Position numbers and translations under genes: made by a program
Part shown: in pieces, positions 279 through 6,992 of the stretch
Layout of the letters: every line of letters begins with the position of its first letter
Numbering within the stretch: position 1 is the first letter of the stretch
IMG/VR virus record: IMGVR_UViG_2675903661_000016
DNA from: a virus
Lineage: Duplodnaviria > Heunggongvirae > Uroviricota > Caudoviricetes
Length of the DNA: 17,238 nt
Reading direction: 5' to 3' (one strand)
Notes under the pieces: generated by a model
Told to the model about the DNA's origin: nothing
The model's database searches: none
The model's input: the letters and a program-made list of their open reading frames with translations, nothing else

Positions 279-355
279 TGGACCGCCATCGAGGACTCGA
301 ACCCCGCGCAGCCAGCTTCGAAGGCTGGCGCTCTATCCCGATGAGCTAATGGCGG
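279..355 (-). tRNA. tRNA-Arg, anticodon UCG (phage-encoded, argO-like)
   Basis: Reverse complement folds as a 77-nt cloverleaf: acceptor CCGCCAT/ATGGCGG, D-arm GCTC-ATCGGGATA-GAGC, anticodon stem CCAGC/GCTGG with loop CTTCGAA, T-arm CGGGG-TTCGAGT-CCTCG, discriminator T, encoded CCA. Position 1 is C (C1-G72). Confidence 0.75.
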
Positions 356-364
356 TATGTGATA

Positions 365-440
365 TGGTGGCCCTTGCTGGATTTGAACCAGCGACCTGGC
401 GATTATGAGTCGCTCGCTCTCACCACTGAGCTAAAGGGCC
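365..440 (-). tRNA. tRNA-Ile2-like, anticodon CAU (ileX/ileZ-like; Met cannot be excluded from sequence alone)
   Basis: Reverse complement GGCCCTTTAGCTCAGTGGTGAGAGCGAGCGACTCATAATCGCCAGGTCGCTGGTTCAAATCCAGCAAGGGCCACCA: 76 nt, acceptor GGCCCTT/AAGGGCC, anticodon loop CTCATAA, T-loop TTCAAAT, encoded CCA. Close to the recalled E. coli ileX sequence. Confidence 0.8.
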
Positions 441-480
441 GGGAGCAGGATAATAACGGTACGTAACTAATCCTGCAATA

Positions 481-1584
481 TCATCCATTCTGACTGACTA
501 AATCCTGTACTTCCCTGACCGTCTGCTCAAAACGTTCAGTCTCCAGCTCAACGCCAGTTGCACGACGGCCCAGTGCCAGTGCAGCTTTAACTGTCGAACC
601 CGACCCCATGAAAAAATCTGCAACCAGGTCCCCCGGACGACTACTCGCGCTGATTATCTGCTGCAGCATTTCTGCCGGCTTTTCGCACGGATGTTTCCCG
701 GGATAGTACTGCACCGGTTTATGCGTCCACACATCCGTGTACGGCACCTGCGCCGTCACGCCAAAATACCGCCGCAGATGCTTATATTCACTCTGCAGTT
801 CCGCATACTGCCGGTTCAGTGAAGTATACGTCTCCAGCAGCTGGTGGTGGGGCTTTTCCAGTTCACCCCGCTGATGCTTCTCTTCTGCCACCCGGGCAAA
901 CAGCGCCTGTAATTTCAGATAATCGCTTTCGTTCGGTAGCTGCCACTGACTGGCACTGAACCAGTGCGACACCATGTTTTTCTTTCCTGTGGCATCCACT
1001 ATCTGTTTTGCCGTTATCCCCAGGGCAGCACGCGCATCACGAAAGTAAGCAATCAGCGGAGCCATCACATGCTGTTTCAGTGCCCTGCCCTTCGCCTCAT
1101 ACCCGGCATCTTTCGGACGATACGGCCCCTGATAATGTTCCGCGAACAGAATGCGCTCTGTGGCGGGGAAATACGCCCTCAGGCTTTCCTTGTTGCACCC
1201 GTTCCAGCGTCCGGACGGCTTCGCCCAGATAATATGGTTCAGCACACTGAAGCGTTCAAGCATCATGATTTCGATATCAGATGCCAGGCGATGGCCACAG
1301 AACAGGTAAAGACTTCCGGCAGGTTTCAGCACCCGCCAGAACTGCGCCAGACACTGGTCCAGCCACTTCAGGTAATCCTCATCACCCGTCCACTGGTTAT
1401 CCCAGCCCTCAGGCTTCACTTTAAAGTACGGCGGGTCCGTGACTATCAGGTCAACAGAATTTTCGGGTAACGACCGGATAAATTCCAGGCAGTCGGCGTT
1501 GATTAACTCACAAGCAGTGGGCCTGAGGTTTGCTTGTGATCCGGACGCATGAGCAGATGGCTGGTGAGTGCCCCTAACCCCCAC
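481..1584 (-). CDS. N6-adenine DNA methyltransferase (DPPY motif; phage orphan MTase)
   Basis: 386-aa ORF with motif IV LIVTDPPY near the N-terminus and C-terminal AdoMet-binding FFMGSGST. No in-frame ATG before residue 128, so the start must be GTG or TTG; I chose GTG at 1584 but it could extend to TTG at 1641. Confidence 0.8.
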   Translation of the reverse strand: MGVRGTHQPSAHASGSQANLRPTACELINADCLEFIRSLPENSVDLIVTDPPYFKVKPEGWDNQWTGDEDYLKWLDQCLAQFWRVLKPAGSLYLFCGHRLASDIEIMMLERFSVLNHIIWAKPSGRWNGCNKESLRAYFPATERILFAEHYQGPYRPKDAGYEAKGRALKQHVMAPLIAYFRDARAALGITAKQIVDATGKKNMVSHWFSASQWQLPNESDYLKLQALFARVAEEKHQRGELEKPHHQLLETYTSLNRQYAELQSEYKHLRRYFGVTAQVPYTDVWTHKPVQYYPGKHPCEKPAEMLQQIISASSRPGDLVADFFMGSGSTVKAALALGRRATGVELETERFEQTVREVQDLVSQNG

Positions 1585-1602
1585 CAGCCGCCCATTTACC
1601 AC

Positions 1603-1630
1603 AAATAAAAAAGCCTTCAGGACTGAAGGC
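1603..1630 (-). terminator. Intrinsic terminator overlapping the stop codon of the small wHTH gene
   Basis: Minus strand reads GCCTTCAG-TC-CTGAAGGC followed by TTTTTTATTT. Confidence 0.5.
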
Positions 1631-1814
1631 GTCTGTAACAACCGAACTGATAGTCTGCCAGACCCGCCATAACAAGCTGGGTCAGTATTAGCTGGCAGCG
1701 TTCGCGTGAAAGGTACGTATTCTGTGCAATCTCCCCGACTGTCGCCGGTTCGGTGGCACTTAATTCATTAAAAACTGCTCTGGCGGTTTCTGTCATATCC
1801 TGCTGTTTCAGCAT
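1617..1814 (-). CDS. Small putative winged-helix DNA-binding protein (66 aa from ATG), unknown function
   Basis: ORF 1617..1850; ATG at 1814 preceded by AAGGGA about 9 nt upstream. Product MLKQQDMTETARAVFNELSATEPATVGEIAQ... has an HTH-like segment. Ends inside the terminator hairpin. Confidence 0.45.
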   Translation of the reverse strand: MLKQQDMTETARAVFNELSATEPATVGEIAQNTYLSRERCQLILTQLVMAGLADYQFGCYRRLQS

Positions 1815-1987
1815 GTCTTTTTCCCTTTTCCGGTTAACGTGACACACCAATAACTCTTGTCAAAAAAGCCAGCAAGCTGAAAGACCGGTATTAATAACCA
1901 CCTGCACATTTTATGTACTGCACCATTTTTCTGGCATAAAAAAACCGCTCAATGCCGGGCAGTAAAATCTTTATTACTCAGGAAATT

Positions 1988-2701
1988 TTAACGTACTCTG
2001 ACAGTATTAATTTCAAAATCATTAATATTTCCGCTATTAAATATAACGAATTTCTTACCCCCACTCCTGTATGATTTCGATAACACCAGACGATCATCAT
2101 AGCGCGCAATAATGTAATACCATACATTCTCATAGTGGACCGCCTGATATTCCCTCTTAAACTGTGGTTTGTACCAACCGGCAATAAGAGAGAATGCCCA
2201 GAAATAAATCATAAACCCAGCCATCATGAACTCAATTCGGTGATGGCGAATAACAGACATTTCCGAAAAACATTTGACTGAAACAAGTCTTCTTCCAGAC
2301 CTGACAAAAAGCGTGATTGCAAAGGCAGCAAGAACGCAGAAAATCAGTACATCTGGCTCAACATGCTGATGAATTACAGAAAACTCCAGAACAGGTGGAA
2401 TAAAAAGCAGCAATATCGCGAGAAAAAGCCGGATAAAACTCAAATTTTGTATATTGCGCTTTTGTTTTATGCCCAAAAAGAAAACAATACCAACTCCCCA
2501 TCCAATAAGGAATATAACAATAACTGTCACAGCATAAAACAAACTTCGTGCTACATCATCGACACCAGCCCCGACAACCCACCATGGAAAGCCATAGTAA
2601 AATGAAGTACCCCATCCATAGAAATAAGCGCTCCCCCATCCGAGACAGCCCATATAAGCAACAAAAAGTGAAGAGTTTCTGAGCAGAGCACTGTCATCCA
2701 T
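1988..2701 (-). CDS. Multi-pass inner-membrane protein of unknown function (AT-rich moron in the late leader)
   Basis: 237-aa ORF starting at ATG 2701; at least four hydrophobic helices with aromatic/Gly-rich segments (GWGSAYFYGWG, FLIGWGVGIVFFLG) and a soluble C-terminal tail. Clearly lower GC than flanking phage genes. Confidence 0.6.
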   Translation of the reverse strand: MDDSALLRNSSLFVAYMGCLGWGSAYFYGWGTSFYYGFPWWVVGAGVDDVARSLFYAVTVIVIFLIGWGVGIVFFLGIKQKRNIQNLSFIRLFLAILLLFIPPVLEFSVIHQHVEPDVLIFCVLAAFAITLFVRSGRRLVSVKCFSEMSVIRHHRIEFMMAGFMIYFWAFSLIAGWYKPQFKREYQAVHYENVWYYIIARYDDRLVLSKSYRSGGKKFVIFNSGNINDFEINTVRVR

Positions 2702-2842
2702 AGTAACACCATTAACAACTCAAAAATATCAACACACATTACATAACAAATTGGATTCCATGCAGTCAAGGGGCGTCATTGATGGAGAAAGTATTGGCAC
2801 AATCGTCATCACGTTTAATGTCTATGCCATTTTTTGGGGGGT

Positions 2843-2867
2843 AAAAAACCCGCTCGGTCACGGGTTT
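2843..2867 (-). terminator. tR'-like intrinsic terminator downstream of the late promoter
   Basis: Minus strand AAACCCG-TGACCGAG-CGGGTTT followed by TTT, about 55 nt downstream of the predicted -10 element. Confidence 0.45.
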
Positions 2868-2918
2868 TAGTGGCTTTGCCATCACGTATAATAACGGCAA
2901 AATATCAGATTTACACGA

Positions 2919-2947
2919 AATATATGCCTTTTTATCTACTTTTGCAA
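2919..2947 (-). promoter_or_regulatory. pR'-like late promoter immediately downstream of the Q-like gene
   Basis: Minus strand TTGCAA (-35, 2947..2942), 17-nt spacer, TATATT (-10, 2924..2919). Further -10-like AT-rich elements (GATATT, ATTATA) lie just downstream, as at a Q-engagement pause site. Confidence 0.45.
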
Positions 2948-2954
2948 TACTTTG

Positions 2955-3620
2955 CTATGAAAATGCCGCCTTTTGTTTTGAACGTGTTCCCTCCACCAAC
3001 AATAAAGCTTCACTATCCAGCCGATGAAAAATGTGTTTCATTGCAACCCAGTGACCAGTAAATGTCTTGGACCAGTTTTTGGTTGTTACTCCCACCAGTA
3101 ACGCCAGTTCCTGGTATTCGTAACCTTCCCCACCAAAAAGCTCAGCTTTTACCGCCTGCGCCGCCAACCAGATCAACGTCTTCAGGCGCACCAGAGTTTT
3201 TCCTGCAATTTTTCTGGTACCGGATTGAGCATTAAATTCAGTCCACGCCCACTGCGTTATCGCGATCTGATGCTCCCAGCAAATGCTACCGCTGTAACAC
3301 CACAGCAGCCAGGCTTTATGATGTTCTTCAAGAGACAGAACGGCGCGTCGCCATGATGATGTCGAAAACTCAACCGGACTGACCAGGGCAATTGATGAGC
3401 CTTTCGCCAGTGATTGTTTACCCGGGATCGGGGGATTATCCCGCGTGATCATTTTTCCGGTTACCTCATCGCGGTAACGAATTTTTTTGCGTCTGTAACG
3501 CCCTGTATCGAACAGGGCATTTTCCTGCCAGACTTCCAGCTGGCCTTTTGTCGACCCACTAAGATCCGCAGTGGCAATCATGAGTTGCTCACGAACAAAC
3601 TGTAAATACTGGTTATTCAT
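2955..3620 (-). CDS. Putative late-gene antitermination protein (Q-like), assigned by position
   Basis: 221 aa from ATG 3620 with AGGTGG SD; start overlaps the rusA stop (ATGAATAA). Sits immediately upstream of the promoter-terminator unit, as Q does in lambdoid phages. No CxxC zinc-finger pairs, so it is not a lambda/82-type Q by motif; the call is contextual. Confidence 0.4.
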   Translation of the reverse strand: MNNQYLQFVREQLMIATADLSGSTKGQLEVWQENALFDTGRYRRKKIRYRDEVTGKMITRDNPPIPGKQSLAKGSSIALVSPVEFSTSSWRRAVLSLEEHHKAWLLWCYSGSICWEHQIAITQWAWTEFNAQSGTRKIAGKTLVRLKTLIWLAAQAVKAELFGGEGYEYQELALLVGVTTKNWSKTFTGHWVAMKHIFHRLDSEALLLVEGTRSKQKAAFS

Positions 3621-3975
3621 GCACACCCACCTCTGTAATTCTTATCTCCAGCCGTCCACCAGATACTGGCTTGCCACGTACAATATTGATTTCATCAAAC
3701 TGCTCATCGTCCATTAACAACCCCGCGTGCGTCAGCGCATCCAGCGGTGCTTTCAGAATATTGTCCAGGTCACGGCGGCGCTTATCCGGCGGCTCTGCAA
3801 TAATTTTTATTGCCAGCCGTCCGGACAGGCTTAATTTCAGTCGCTGCTGGCGAACAATAAGCACCACTGCCCGGCGATAACGCTCCCCGGCTTTTGATAC
3901 AAAATATGTGCTGCCACGGCGTCGCCAGTAAGTGTTCACCGTCGGCGGGTAAGGTAAAACCAAATCTATGAGCAT
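3613..3975 (-). CDS. rusA: Crossover junction endodeoxyribonuclease RusA (Holliday junction resolvase)
   Basis: 120-aa product aligns with recalled E. coli RusA along its length, including the conserved DKRRRDLDNILKAPLDALTHAGLLMDD and GGRLEIRITE segments. Strong SD AAGAGGTGA before ATG 3975. Confidence 0.85.
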   Translation of the reverse strand: MLIDLVLPYPPTVNTYWRRRGSTYFVSKAGERYRRAVVLIVRQQRLKLSLSGRLAIKIIAEPPDKRRRDLDNILKAPLDALTHAGLLMDDEQFDEINIVRGKPVSGGRLEIRITEVGVHE

Positions 3976-3987
3976 CAGTCACCTCTT

Positions 3988-5037
3988 TTACCCGAGCACG
4001 CCAGTCGCAAAGGCGTGATCAAGAAAACGAAAAATTAACTCAATCTGAGAGCCGTACTTTTTCTCAAACTTCAGCGGGTCTGCATGAAGTTCGTTGTGGT
4101 GCTCCCGGCACAACGGTAGCGTGAAAATATCGTGGGCCTTTGTTCCCACTCCCCCCTGACCATGACCAATCAGGTGATGCGGATCGTCAGCTGGCTTACC
4201 ACAACACGCACACGGCTGTGTCTTTACCCAGCGCGTGTATTTCTCATTAACCCAACGGCGACGTTTAGGCCGCCTCATGAACGATTCAGGAGACTCCGGA
4301 TCAACGGCGATACTGACAACCGTTTTTTTCTGTGGTGGATTTTGTTGCTGGTGGACGTGAAGTGGCAGCGCAATATTTTTTGTGCGCTGCTTCAGTATGC
4401 TGATGGCTGTCTGTTCTCCCGGTACGATGTCACTCTCACGGTATACGGAGCGGATTTTTTCCGCCGGTAATCCCAGCGAACGACGCGCTACTGCCTCAGG
4501 TAGTGCATCCACCACCTGATTGCAGGCCGCCCACCAGGATAATTCGGCCAGCGATAACTCCCTCTCCTGCGTACCGCTTATTGCGTGACGGATGACGTCA
4601 ATCATCCAGGCAACCAGATTCTGCTGAGCAAGTTGATCGAGTGATTCTGATGTCTGGTCGCGCAGCTGGTTGTCACAGTGCCAGCACAATACCATCGCGC
4701 CGGTACCGTAACGGTGAATGACTGTTTCGCTGTGATGATAATCGCCGTGTGGCCACTGGCAGGATTTCACGTGACGTAATAACCAGTCAGACAGTGCACC
4801 TGCACCACCTGCTGCACGAATAACCCGCTCATCGCTGAAAAATGGCAGTAATGTTTTATCCTCTGCCAGCGGCTGGCGAACGGCAGGAACGACTCCGGAC
4901 GGCAGATCGCGCATGTTTTTCGGTTCCGCCTCCACCAATATTCTGCCGTTATGGAATGCTGACATTGATTCACGGCCTGGCTTAACGATAACCAGACCGA
5001 GTTCCGGTACCAGAACAGGTCGAAGTAATACCCGCAC
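3988..5037 (-). CDS. DUF968-family protein (YdfU-like) with C-terminal Cys/His nuclease-like motif
   Basis: 349 aa from GTG 5037 (GGAGGT SD, immediately after the upstream stop). C-terminus CACCGKPADDPHHLIGHGQGGVGTKAHDIFTLPLCREHHNELH resembles an HNH/zinc-binding module. Same size and position as YdfU in Qin. Confidence 0.65.
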   Translation of the reverse strand: MRVLLRPVLVPELGLVIVKPGRESMSAFHNGRILVEAEPKNMRDLPSGVVPAVRQPLAEDKTLLPFFSDERVIRAAGGAGALSDWLLRHVKSCQWPHGDYHHSETVIHRYGTGAMVLCWHCDNQLRDQTSESLDQLAQQNLVAWMIDVIRHAISGTQERELSLAELSWWAACNQVVDALPEAVARRSLGLPAEKIRSVYRESDIVPGEQTAISILKQRTKNIALPLHVHQQQNPPQKKTVVSIAVDPESPESFMRRPKRRRWVNEKYTRWVKTQPCACCGKPADDPHHLIGHGQGGVGTKAHDIFTLPLCREHHNELHADPLKFEKKYGSQIELIFRFLDHAFATGVLG

Positions 5038-5479: not shown

Positions 5480-5635
5480 TTACTTCTCAGATTCGTAGTC
5501 TACGAAGACAGCGACCTCCGTCTGGCCGGTTCGGATTCGTACCTCGCAGAGGTCTTTCCTCGTTACCAGTGCCGTCACAACAACGGTAATACAGATGACG
5601 ATCAGGGCGATTAACATCGCCTTTTGCTGCTTCAT
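5480..5635 (-). CDS. hok: Hok/Gef-family type I toxin (HokD/RelF-like small membrane toxin)
   Basis: 51-aa product MKQQKAMLIALIVICITVVVTALVTRKDLCEVRIRTGQTEVAVFVDYESEK is near-identical in pattern to recalled HokD. AAGGAG SD upstream. An in-frame upstream ATG at 5692 gives a 70-aa ORF overlapping the leader. Confidence 0.8.
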   Translation of the reverse strand: MKQQKAMLIALIVICITVVVTALVTRKDLCEVRIRTGQTEVAVFVDYESEK

Positions 5636-5689
5636 AGCCTGCTTCTCCTTGCCTTTCGGCACGTAAGAGGCTAACCTACGTTTGTGAAG

Positions 5690-5770
5690 CATAGATTGGG
5701 CCTCAGATTAATGTTAAGCGTCCTGCAAGACGCGTAATGTTAACTGGGGCTTTTCTCTGTCTGCCTTACG
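5690..5770 (+). ncRNA. Putative Sok-like antisense RNA region opposite the hok leader (boundaries not determinable by eye)
   Basis: Inferred from hok/sok family organisation: antisense RNA is encoded opposite the 5' leader and upstream-ORF start. A 9-bp inverted repeat CTGTCTGCC/GGCAGACAG (5757-5794) lies in this leader. Confidence 0.2.
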
Positions 5771-5925
5771 GCGGCATGCCCGAGGCAGACAGCCTCAAGC
5801 ACCCGCAGCAATTCTACTTAACTCTTCTTTCCCCGCAAACCGTTTTTATCCCCAGCGGCAAATCGAATACACCACCAGCGCCACCGCCATTGCAATTCCT
5901 ACCGTTATGAACGCTTCAGGCCAGG

Positions 5926-6627
5926 TCATCGTAAAATATTCTCCTCGTTTATCAGTCCGTTTCGCTTCAGGTAGTCCATCGCTTTATCCGGTAGTTTGCT
6001 TGATTTATTAACGCTTTTTAAGGAATGAGATAACCGCTTCACCCACATTGTTAATTCACTTACCTGATCGCCTGATGCTGGATTATTGTCGCTTTTTCCA
6101 GGCAATATGTGCTCTCGACTGGATTTCCAGAATATCCATGCCAAATCCACATTTGGATCCCGGTAATTCATCCCTTCGTTAGCACGAAGCAATAATGTTT
6201 CATGGTTTTTATCATCTGCATGGAACCTGATAAGTGTTTCAAACTGTTCGCGACCGTCATCAGGGATTACCTGAGAGTTACCCGTTAGCACATTCTGCTC
6301 CAGTGATGCTTTTACAAACCAGGCGGCCTGGACTATAACCCCATGGATCCAGCGCAAATCAGCATCGAGATCCTTCTTCTTCATCTTTTCGCCACTTAAA
6401 GCCTTGCTTATGTGGCTGCGCACCAGGTCTTCATGTAACTCCTTCGCCTCCTCAATGGTGAAACCGCCAGGCAAACGCCCCGGAGTTACCGGAGGGTTGC
6501 CAGCCTTGCGCATGGCAATCTCCATGATTTCAACCATATCTCCTGGTGGAATTTTACAATGCTGACCAATATGCCTCTGCTGCCCGGCATATTCGAGGAT
6601 GTGCTCCAGTTTGATACGATTAATCAT
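5926..6627 (-). CDS. Hypothetical 233-aa protein, second gene of an overlapping two-gene cargo module
   Basis: ATG 6627 overlaps the stop of the upstream gene (ATGA), with GGAG SD. Soluble, charged protein with no motif I can assign. Confidence 0.55.
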   Translation of the reverse strand: MINRIKLEHILEYAGQQRHIGQHCKIPPGDMVEIMEIAMRKAGNPPVTPGRLPGGFTIEEAKELHEDLVRSHISKALSGEKMKKKDLDADLRWIHGVIVQAAWFVKASLEQNVLTGNSQVIPDDGREQFETLIRFHADDKNHETLLLRANEGMNYRDPNVDLAWIFWKSSREHILPGKSDNNPASGDQVSELTMWVKRLSHSLKSVNKSSKLPDKAMDYLKRNGLINEENILR

Positions 6628-6992
6628 GATTTATCTCCATTAAGCATGGCATCCCGGCAGGCATTCCAGCCTTCATCAAATCCGACAATGCCATTATTTA
6701 AAGATGGACGAGCATCCGGCACCACCGGTACAGGTTGGGCTACATATAACGGCTGAACATACCAGCCCTTTGATAACCAACTATCAGCAACGTTTTTACT
6801 CCTGGTTATTGCTGGAATACCCAGGCCATTGTCTGAATGCAGCCATGCCACCGGAACCGCCTCCAGCGATGCCAGTGCAATTTTGAATAGCTCTCCCTCT
6901 ACCCTGGCCATCTCTGAATTAGGGTAACATTTCGCAACCGCTATTTTTAATTTGGCTTCTTTGATTAATTGCTCTTTTGTTAATTCAGTCAT
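6624..6992 (-). CDS. Hypothetical 122-aa protein, first gene of the two-gene module
   Basis: ATG 6992; product MTELTKEQLIKEAKLKIAVAK...; preceded by a 150-bp intergenic region with a hairpin. Confidence 0.55.
   Translation of the reverse strand: MTELTKEQLIKEAKLKIAVAKCYPNSEMARVEGELFKIALASLEAVPVAWLHSDNGLGIPAITRSKNVADSWLSKGWYVQPLYVAQPVPVVPDARPSLNNGIVGFDEGWNACRDAMLNGDKS

Follow-up and report, generated by a model that had tools for sequence, protein, structure and literature searches.

Classical morons of lambdoid phages, exemplified by stx, by bor and lom of phage lambda and by gp15 of HK97, are extra genes of deviant base composition that lie between conserved modules and are dispensable for lytic growth. 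The Shiga toxin (Stx) genes occupy the slot behind the late promoter pR' and its terminator tR', where induction is stronger than anywhere else in a lambdoid prophage, whereas bor/lom and gp15 sit elsewhere. Here we analyzed a 17,238-nucleotide (nt) stretch of DNA (hereafter, the window, always meant at its full length) from a virus of the class Caudoviricetes, IMG/VR record IMGVR_UViG_2675903661_000016, in which an open reading frame (ORF) for a 237-amino-acid (aa) protein (1988..2701, on the minus strand, as are all late-region genes described below) shares the post-tR' slot of stx. The ORF is moron-type cargo of low GC content at the first late-operon position of a non-Stx lambdoid prophage, and by sequence its product is a member of the Pfam family TfpB (PF27470), to which no function has been assigned. 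Like the classical morons, the ORF is extra, deviant in composition, placed between conserved modules and, judging from a relative in phage 434, apparently dispensable for lytic growth. Unlike them, it has a promoter of its own only as a candidate, and its downstream terminator is degenerate. The ORF protein is related neither in sequence nor in fold to the products of stx, bor/lom and gp15, being a predicted integral inner-membrane protein rather than a toxin or an outer-membrane lipoprotein. The reading that we favor, with about even confidence, is that of a moron-type accessory gene whose product, an inner-membrane protein of the envelope, alters traits of the host cell and is also expressed with the late operon.

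Several relatives of the ORF have been described. Gene 68 of phage 434 (CPT_434_68, 'putative membrane protein'), also found in phage 2B8, encodes a protein 56% identical to that of the ORF. The position in phage 434 is the same, with a phage 82-type Q gene, a late promoter, a terminator and a TTGACG-N18-TATG element ahead of the gene, but the downstream neighbors differ: TciB/DUF3927 and a SASA esterase are found there instead of the module of winged helix-turn-helix (wHTH), methyltransferase (MTase) and tRNA genes that follows the ORF. STM1630 of Salmonella Typhimurium (SL1344_1560), a 'putative membrane protein' encoded between sseJ and steB, is 47% identical over the full length without gaps. 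It resembles the ORF in belonging to PF27470, in its size and in residing in AT-rich, horizontally acquired DNA, and it is the only member of the family with published expression and mutant data; unlike the ORF, it is chromosomal, has neither Q nor pR' upstream, and its mapped promoter lies in unrelated sequence, ~175-190 nt from the ATG. That STM1630 is indeed the neighbor of sseJ follows from a published deletion primer, which encodes NSSMLLAYLGGLGWG, the N-terminus of the Salmonella family member, and from the gene table, which lists 717 bp next to sseJ. The namesake of PF27470, TfpB of Moraxella bovis/lacunata, has in common with the ORF protein the N-terminal aromatic/Gly motif, the ARSL motif and the YYIL...IL beta domain; it differs in its length (261 aa) and in its location within a type IV pilin cluster, outside a prophage. 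To our knowledge, the function of Moraxella TfpB has never been established.

The ORF had been singled out in an earlier note, made from the letters of the window alone, and its 237-aa extent was confirmed in the list of ORFs (minus strand, ATG start, TAA stop). Its assignment as a TfpB-family gene draws on that list, the phrog_1521 match, the PF27470 labels, hydropathy, an AlphaFold2 (AF2) model and the ratio of nonsynonymous to synonymous substitution rates (dN/dS). The ORF is a genuine gene under purifying selection and not a chance reading frame, because dN/dS against six homologues (69-90% identity) amounts to 0.13-0.20, at least 1000 contigs encode the identical protein, and 199 of 5426 complete E. 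coli genomes contain the 1.1-kb cassette region at a coverage of at least 80%, the product being annotated there as hypothetical protein WP_000342737.1. As claimed in the earlier note, the GC content of the ORF (0.398; 0.366 at third codon positions, GC3) is well below that of the surrounding genes, namely, Q (0.487; GC3 0.50) and the MTase (0.542; GC3 0.60), the value for the whole window being 0.484. These data bear on the notion that the gene is a functionless hitch-hiker in E. coli, retained by a recombination hot-spot. The databases do contain many truncated or frameshifted copies of the family, and the Salmonella ST313 lineage has silenced its copy; against this stand the low dN/dS across the 69-90% identical copies, the retention of length and motifs down to 20-30% identity in other bacterial families, and the repeated acquisition of the cassette behind different types of Q, and we regard a functionless passenger as extremely unlikely.

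Reading along the minus strand, the genes and signals are arranged in the order DUF968, RusA, Q, a pR'-like promoter, a tR' hairpin, the ORF, a 77-aa wHTH gene, the MTase and two tRNAs. The Q gene (2955..3626, minus strand) encodes an antiterminator of the phage 82 type (PF06323, E = 1.3e-90; 'bacteriophage antitermination protein Q' in RefSeq). Immediately 3' of its stop codon, in an arrangement like that of phage 434, lies the pR'-like late promoter (2919..2947, minus strand), TTGCAA-N17-TATATT, with 9 of 12 positions matching the consensus. The tR'-like intrinsic terminator follows at 2843..2868 on the minus strand (AAAACCCG-tgaccgag-CGGGTTTT plus TT; the stem is also written AAAACCCG-tgaccgag-CGGGTTTTTT). 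The fold of 2835-2915 has a free energy of -24.1 kcal/mol (z = -4.0), none of 200 shuffled sequences being as stable, and the equivalent hairpin in phage 434 carries a terminator annotation. The stretch between pR' and tR' would yield a leader transcript of ~70 nt (window 2843-2912, minus strand) with two stable hairpins, the second of which is the terminator. In position, it is comparable to the 6S RNA of lambda and the short regulatory RNA reported for Stx phages. No Rfam family matched the leader and no known RNA was found in the ORF region, the Rfam matches in the window being sok and the two tRNAs. The ORF starts 141 nt past the tR' terminator and is the first ORF of the late operon, downstream of tR' and outside the leader transcript. 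The description of the gene as inserted in the late leader is thus accurate as to the slot, after the late promoter and before the MTase and tRNAs, but not as to the leader itself, whose terminator (2868..2843) precedes the ORF. The action of Q would drive read-through into the ORF, and given that the ORF occupies the post-tR' slot of stx, strong induction with the late operon is to be expected.

Comparison with related phages brought out the nature of the ORF as cargo. Phages of the PPompW type, 87% identical, have Q, pR' and tR' in common with the window, and the homology ends at window positions 2843-2845, coinciding with the end of the tR' terminator, beyond which these phages carry tRNA genes. 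Stx2 phages and phage 1720a-02 match only downstream of the ORF (window 1850-1950 and the wHTH/MTase module); phage 1720a-02 has the 77-aa/MTase module and lacks the ORF. Whereas the Stx2 phages and 1720a-02 have a single tR', two are discernible in the window, the second being a degenerate tR'/post-tR' copy at 1926..1959 (minus strand), a direct repeat with 74% identity to 2831-2864 that forms the downstream edge of the cassette. This copy has lost the stem, and its fold (-10.9 kcal/mol, z = +0.23) is no better than those of shuffled sequences; it would terminate weakly at best. The two copies, at 2864..2831 and 1959..1926, lie on either side of the ORF and resemble a recombination joint that brought together the diverged tR' modules of two phage lineages. 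A target-site duplication, that is, a footprint of transposition, was rejected as an explanation, given that the repeats are only ~74% identical and that their matches are to the tR' regions of different phage lineages. The ORF lies between conserved genes, is absent from close phages and deviates in base composition, as is typical of morons in the sense of Hendrix and colleagues. The proposal that it is cargo in the slot of stx was borne out by the divergence at 2843 in the PPompW-type phages and by the lack of the ORF in 1720a-02; in addition, one TfpB relative is located directly after stxAB, and others follow several unrelated families of Q, as detailed below.

The gene is accompanied by a promoter-like element (2740..2769, minus strand) composed of TTGACT (2769..2764), an 18-nt spacer, a TG dinucleotide (2748..2747) and TATGTA (2745..2740); a TG ahead of TATGTA corresponds to extended -10 geometry. 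Among the 80 IMG/VR loci that were examined, out of 188 matching stretches, TTGAC[T/G]-N18-TATG was found at -67/-68 from the ATG in 77, and in two loci TACG or TAAG replaces TATG. The position of the element is constant across Q types and across 55-100% protein identity, and the sequence of the spacer is variable. The element is kept in phage 434 (TTGACG-N18-TATG), in E. albertii and in a plasmid of enterotoxigenic E. coli (ETEC); in the plasmid, which has no Q or pR', the similarity to the phage copies begins exactly at CCTCTTGAC. Such a pattern is what a promoter travelling with its gene looks like, making the element a plausible promoter candidate. The suggestion of the earlier note that the gene has its own promoter was exact with respect to TTGACT and finds a conserved element there, but the -10 is non-canonical and the promoter remains a candidate.

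Searches for the family of the ORF protein returned phrog_1521 (E = 2.6e-85, residues 17-237), which PHROG places in the category of unknown function, and, in a collection of 5.8 billion proteins, all 104 homologues, including those 95-97% identical, carry the precomputed label PF27470 (TfpB). Direct scans with the ORF protein of a local copy of Pfam-A, of NCBIfam and of PADLOC matched no family; for Pfam-A this outcome is misleading, because the local library is older and lacks PF27470. Distant members of the family yielded only sub-threshold noise when compared to Pfam. The family is small, comprising 104 clusters at 90% identity, with 71 representatives (E < 0.001) among 1.84 billion proteins and 131 clusters in a profile search, and its taxonomic spread is limited to Enterobacterales, Pasteurellaceae, Neisseria and Moraxella, nearly all members being annotated as 'hypothetical'. 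The family profile recovers the Moraxella 'protein tfpB' with E = 1.2e-68, and in a pairwise BLASTP comparison the ORF protein is 28% identical to Moraxella TfpB over 233 residues (E = 7e-24).

In three genomes, tfpB of Moraxella is flanked by pilin genes on both sides, which raises the question of whether the family partners with pilin-like proteins, binding inner-membrane pilins or pseudopilins and modulating type IV pili or type II secretion. The product of eltAB, which one family member adjoins, is exported by type II secretion, in line with such a role. However, adjacency to pilin genes is confined to Moraxella, and no pilin or secretion genes were found near the enterobacterial, Pasteurellaceae and Neisseria copies, so that a partnership of this kind appears very improbable.

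The architecture of the ORF protein agrees with that of the TfpB family: ~240 aa, an N-terminal aromatic/Gly motif, an ARSL motif and membrane helices, followed by a C-terminal beta domain with YY(I/V)L, again as in the family. Hydropathy (Kyte-Doolittle, 19-residue windows, cut-off of 1.6) reveals four segments above the cut-off, at ~47-80, 83-112, 113-137 and ~156-174, and Trp, Tyr, Phe and Gly abound in the first 45 residues. A first AF2 model was poor, with a mean predicted local distance difference test score (pLDDT) of 63.6; with a deeper alignment of 52 sequences, the pLDDT rose to 76.2, with a predicted template modeling score (pTM) of 0.67. The resulting model contains long helices at 3-36, 47-78, 89-111, 116-138 and 155-181 and a C-terminal, five-stranded beta domain at 184-235. 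The prediction is accordingly that of an inner-membrane protein in which five helices precede a C-terminal beta domain. The claims of at least four transmembrane helices and of aromatic/Gly-rich motifs both held up, the former with four strongly hydrophobic segments and five long modeled helices, and the latter with the motif GWGSAYFYGWGxSFYYGFPWW, the most conserved part of the family.

In two family alignments, the invariant residues are A25, Y26, W30, G37, W40, A51, R52, S53, L54 and G71, followed by Y166, G175, Y195, Y196 and F218. They are aromatic residues, glycines and one arginine, and no conserved acidic residue or histidine was found in these alignments. Charge counts over 52 family members, evaluated by the positive-inside rule, fit an N-in, C-out topology; the N-terminus would then be cytoplasmic, whereas the aromatic/Gly motif, A51-R52-S53-L54 and the beta domain would be periplasmic. 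Because the face that is conserved is aromatic and Gly-rich and carries no residues of the catalytic type, the alignments suggest a binding or scaffolding role on the periplasmic side, rather than an enzymatic one. No similarity to any solved fold was found, and the AF2 structure was uninformative with regard to function.

To place the ORF among its relatives, we considered the contexts of the IMG/VR loci. In 77 of the 80, the gene lies 211-457 nt downstream of a Q antiterminator gene, and the antiterminators belong to unrelated families: PF06323 (47 loci), the lambda-type PF03589 (22) and DUF1133/PF06530-like proteins (7), with the Yersinia copies located behind a PF06530 Q. This distribution speaks for a late-phase phage function, such as timing of lysis, protection of the progeny from re-adsorption or release of co-encoded cargo, for example, toxins, given that Q-dependent expression, directly after pR'/tR', is the sole constant of the phage context. 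A copy in Enterobacter cloacae, which lacks the promoter-like element and lies between stxB and the lysis genes, points in the same direction. Yet many copies of the gene have no surrounding phage, and the homologue in phage 434 proved dispensable. Despite the loss of ~5.5 kb that comprised Q, the late promoter and the lysis region, phage 434B still forms plaques (PMC9119081), and the annotation of OL657226 puts gene 68 within the missing region. Because 434B forms plaques without this region, the gene appears to be dispensable, that is, not needed for lytic growth.

The same question was approached through the lysis genes themselves. Holin, antiholin and spanin families gave no match in Pfam or NCBIfam, and all PHROG matches are to groups of unknown function; homology to a holin or lysis regulator, which the earlier note had named as one finding that would speak against its proposal, was thus not encountered in the Pfam, NCBIfam and PHROG scans. 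Identical prophages occur in O113:H21 and other strains; past the tRNAs they carry a class II holin gene along with a tolA-like gene and a SASA esterase gene, and no stx, so that a separate holin is available further downstream in the same type of prophage. Between the ORF and the lysis genes lie, among others, the wHTH gene, the MTase and the tRNAs. A holin or lysis regulator was rejected as the identity of the ORF product on these grounds, namely, the lack of a family match, the location outside the lysis cassette, the separate class II holin and the viability of 434B. Overall, a late-phase function seems improbable to us, and the favored reading remains that of an accessory gene acting on the host cell.

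Several relatives adjoin toxin or virulence genes. In a prophage of Enterobacter cloacae (CP017475.1), the order is lambda-type Q, stxA, stxB, TfpB (69% identical to the ORF protein) and lysis genes; the TfpB gene is located at 6001-6714 of the extracted stretch, and the same locus is present in IMG/VR at 4001-4711. The stx genes of this prophage are ~86-87% identical to stx1a/1c and represent a divergent Stx1 subtype, presumably Stx1e. A 75%-identical copy on ETEC plasmids, such as pUMNK88_Ent, is oriented divergently from eltAB at a distance of ~870 bp and has an element of the IS481 family on its other side; this arrangement is very common, the protein being listed in 1285 blocks of the collection. 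The virulence plasmid pINV of Shigella (pWR100 of S. flexneri) harbors a 56%-identical copy in a fragmented region rich in insertion sequences (IS), and 106 Shigella plasmid records match. The Salmonella copy is located beside sseJ, whereas in Mannheimia, Neisseria and H. ducreyi solitary copies are found among housekeeping genes.

In Citrobacter rodentium, a split LpxR gene is located directly upstream of the TfpB copy. The order in phage 434 is LpxR, ylcG, Q, TfpB, and that in Citrobacter is the same minus ylcG and Q, which suggests a decayed 434-like prophage.

Copies directly after stx1-like genes in E. cloacae and near eltAB on ETEC plasmids gave rise to a bolder idea, that the TfpB family is a class of lysogenic-conversion envelope proteins that travels with AB5 toxins. 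Such proteins would be induced with the prophage and would engage, through the periplasmic aromatic motif, a conserved partner in the envelope, altering toxin release, surface structures or colonization; because the Moraxella member lies in a pilin locus, the partner would possibly be pilin-like. We consider this extension decidedly speculative.

The Salmonella homologue provides the functional information. According to Text S1 of Canals et al. 2019 (PMC6785131), STM1630 is of unknown function and has no counterpart in S. Typhi; it is equipped with a -10 element and a start site of its own and, in strain 4/74, is expressed in medium inducing Salmonella pathogenicity island 2 (SPI-2) and inside macrophages. 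Two single-nucleotide polymorphisms in the promoter silence it in all ST313 strains tested (PMC6785131 Text S1). The gene contains a binding site for H-NS in SL1344, proposed as the cause of its 'essentiality' in transposon libraries (PMC6785131 Text S1; see PMC3632133), and is among the genes co-regulated with SPI-2 (Yoon et al. 2009, PMC2639726). Signature-tagged mutants were attenuated in calves and chicks (Morgan 2004 as cited in PMC6785131 Text S1), deletion in 4/74 resulted in more intramacrophage replication (PMC6785131 Text S1), and in one screen the deletion mutant was hypermotile, with swimming increased 1.72-fold and swarming 1.62-fold (PMC4219756). Of the roles listed in the earlier note, namely, exclusion, membrane remodeling, and virulence or fitness, only the last appears to have support, and this support is indirect, coming through STM1630.

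Exclusion nevertheless deserves separate consideration. An inner-membrane protein made in the lysogen could block DNA entry or abort infection by other phages. SieA of P22, gp15 of HK97 and Imm of T4 are exclusion proteins of that type, and many prophage morons of such shape are exclusion proteins. In favor of such a role, this prophage moron has a conserved promoter-like element of its own and encodes a multi-pass membrane protein. However, none of the 5027 PADLOC models matched (no family at E ≤ 0.1), a scan that undescribed exclusion functions would escape. The family members that are solitary among housekeeping genes (Mannheimia, Neisseria, H. ducreyi) or reside on virulence plasmids are at odds with exclusion, as is the expression of the Salmonella member in SPI-2-inducing medium and macrophages, rather than constitutively. 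We therefore regard superinfection exclusion or another anti-phage role as unlikely, albeit worth keeping in mind.

Returning to the accessory-gene reading, the following course of events can be envisaged. In the lysogen, transcription from the TTGAC-N18-TATG element would be low or conditional and, as in Salmonella, probably silenced by H-NS. After induction, Q would let RNA polymerase through tR', resulting in strong transcription. The product would change envelope-related traits of the host cell that are relevant to life in an animal host, and would be part of neither lysis nor morphogenesis.

Several observations weigh against this reading. The -10 hexamer of the promoter-like element never has the usual final T, for which reason a consensus scan did not call the element, and the E. 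cloacae copy is devoid of it. The adjacency to toxin genes may reflect nothing but a shared recombination hot-spot. The phenotypes of STM1630 are modest and in part contradictory (attenuation in animals, better replication in macrophages), and they come from a homologue that is 47% identical. Finally, the deletion mutants of the motility screen, STM1630 included, were re-examined by Deditius et al. 2015 (PMC4534456), who suggest for the set that the resistance cassette caused some of the reported effects indirectly, through polarity.

The module downstream of the ORF (279..1850), which is common to Stx2 phages as well, is composed of the 77-aa wHTH gene (1850..1617, minus strand), an N6/N4 DNA methyltransferase gene (1641..481, minus strand) and two tRNA genes, tRNA(CAT) at 440..365 and tRNA-Arg at 355..279, also on the minus strand. 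The tRNA(CAT) gene (365-440) is called Met by ARAGORN and tRNA-Ile by RefSeq in the identical prophages; the latter annotation would fit a lysidine-modified reader of AUA, as in Stx phages. Elsewhere in the window, a hok/sok type I toxin-antitoxin locus was detected at 5480-5804 on the minus strand, with an Rfam sok match of 117.7 bits at 5630-5804. This match overlaps a 70-aa ORF (5480..5692) with a Hok-like hydrophobic sequence.

In terms of annotation, the TfpB-family membrane protein of this window can be firmly described as the product of a moron-type gene and not a lysis protein. The family itself is already cataloged, in Pfam as TfpB and in PHROG as 1521, and the gene of phage 434 has been labeled a putative membrane protein; what emerged here are the strict post-Q association across unrelated Q families, the travelling promoter-like element and the neighborhood with two AB5 toxins. 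A conserved cargo gene recurs in the slot of Shiga toxin behind unrelated Q proteins. Because relatives are found beside the genes for heat-labile toxin (LT), an Stx1-like toxin, SseJ and LpxR, as well as on the virulence plasmid of Shigella, the product is a reasonable candidate for a host-interaction factor. The Salmonella member, STM1630, combines infection-related expression and phenotypes with silencing in the invasive ST313 lineage. Although a specialist would find nothing here greatly surprising, the family is a worthwhile target for experiments. Knowing its function would allow the gene to be annotated in thousands of E. coli, Shigella and Salmonella genomes and might reveal a new activity in the envelope.

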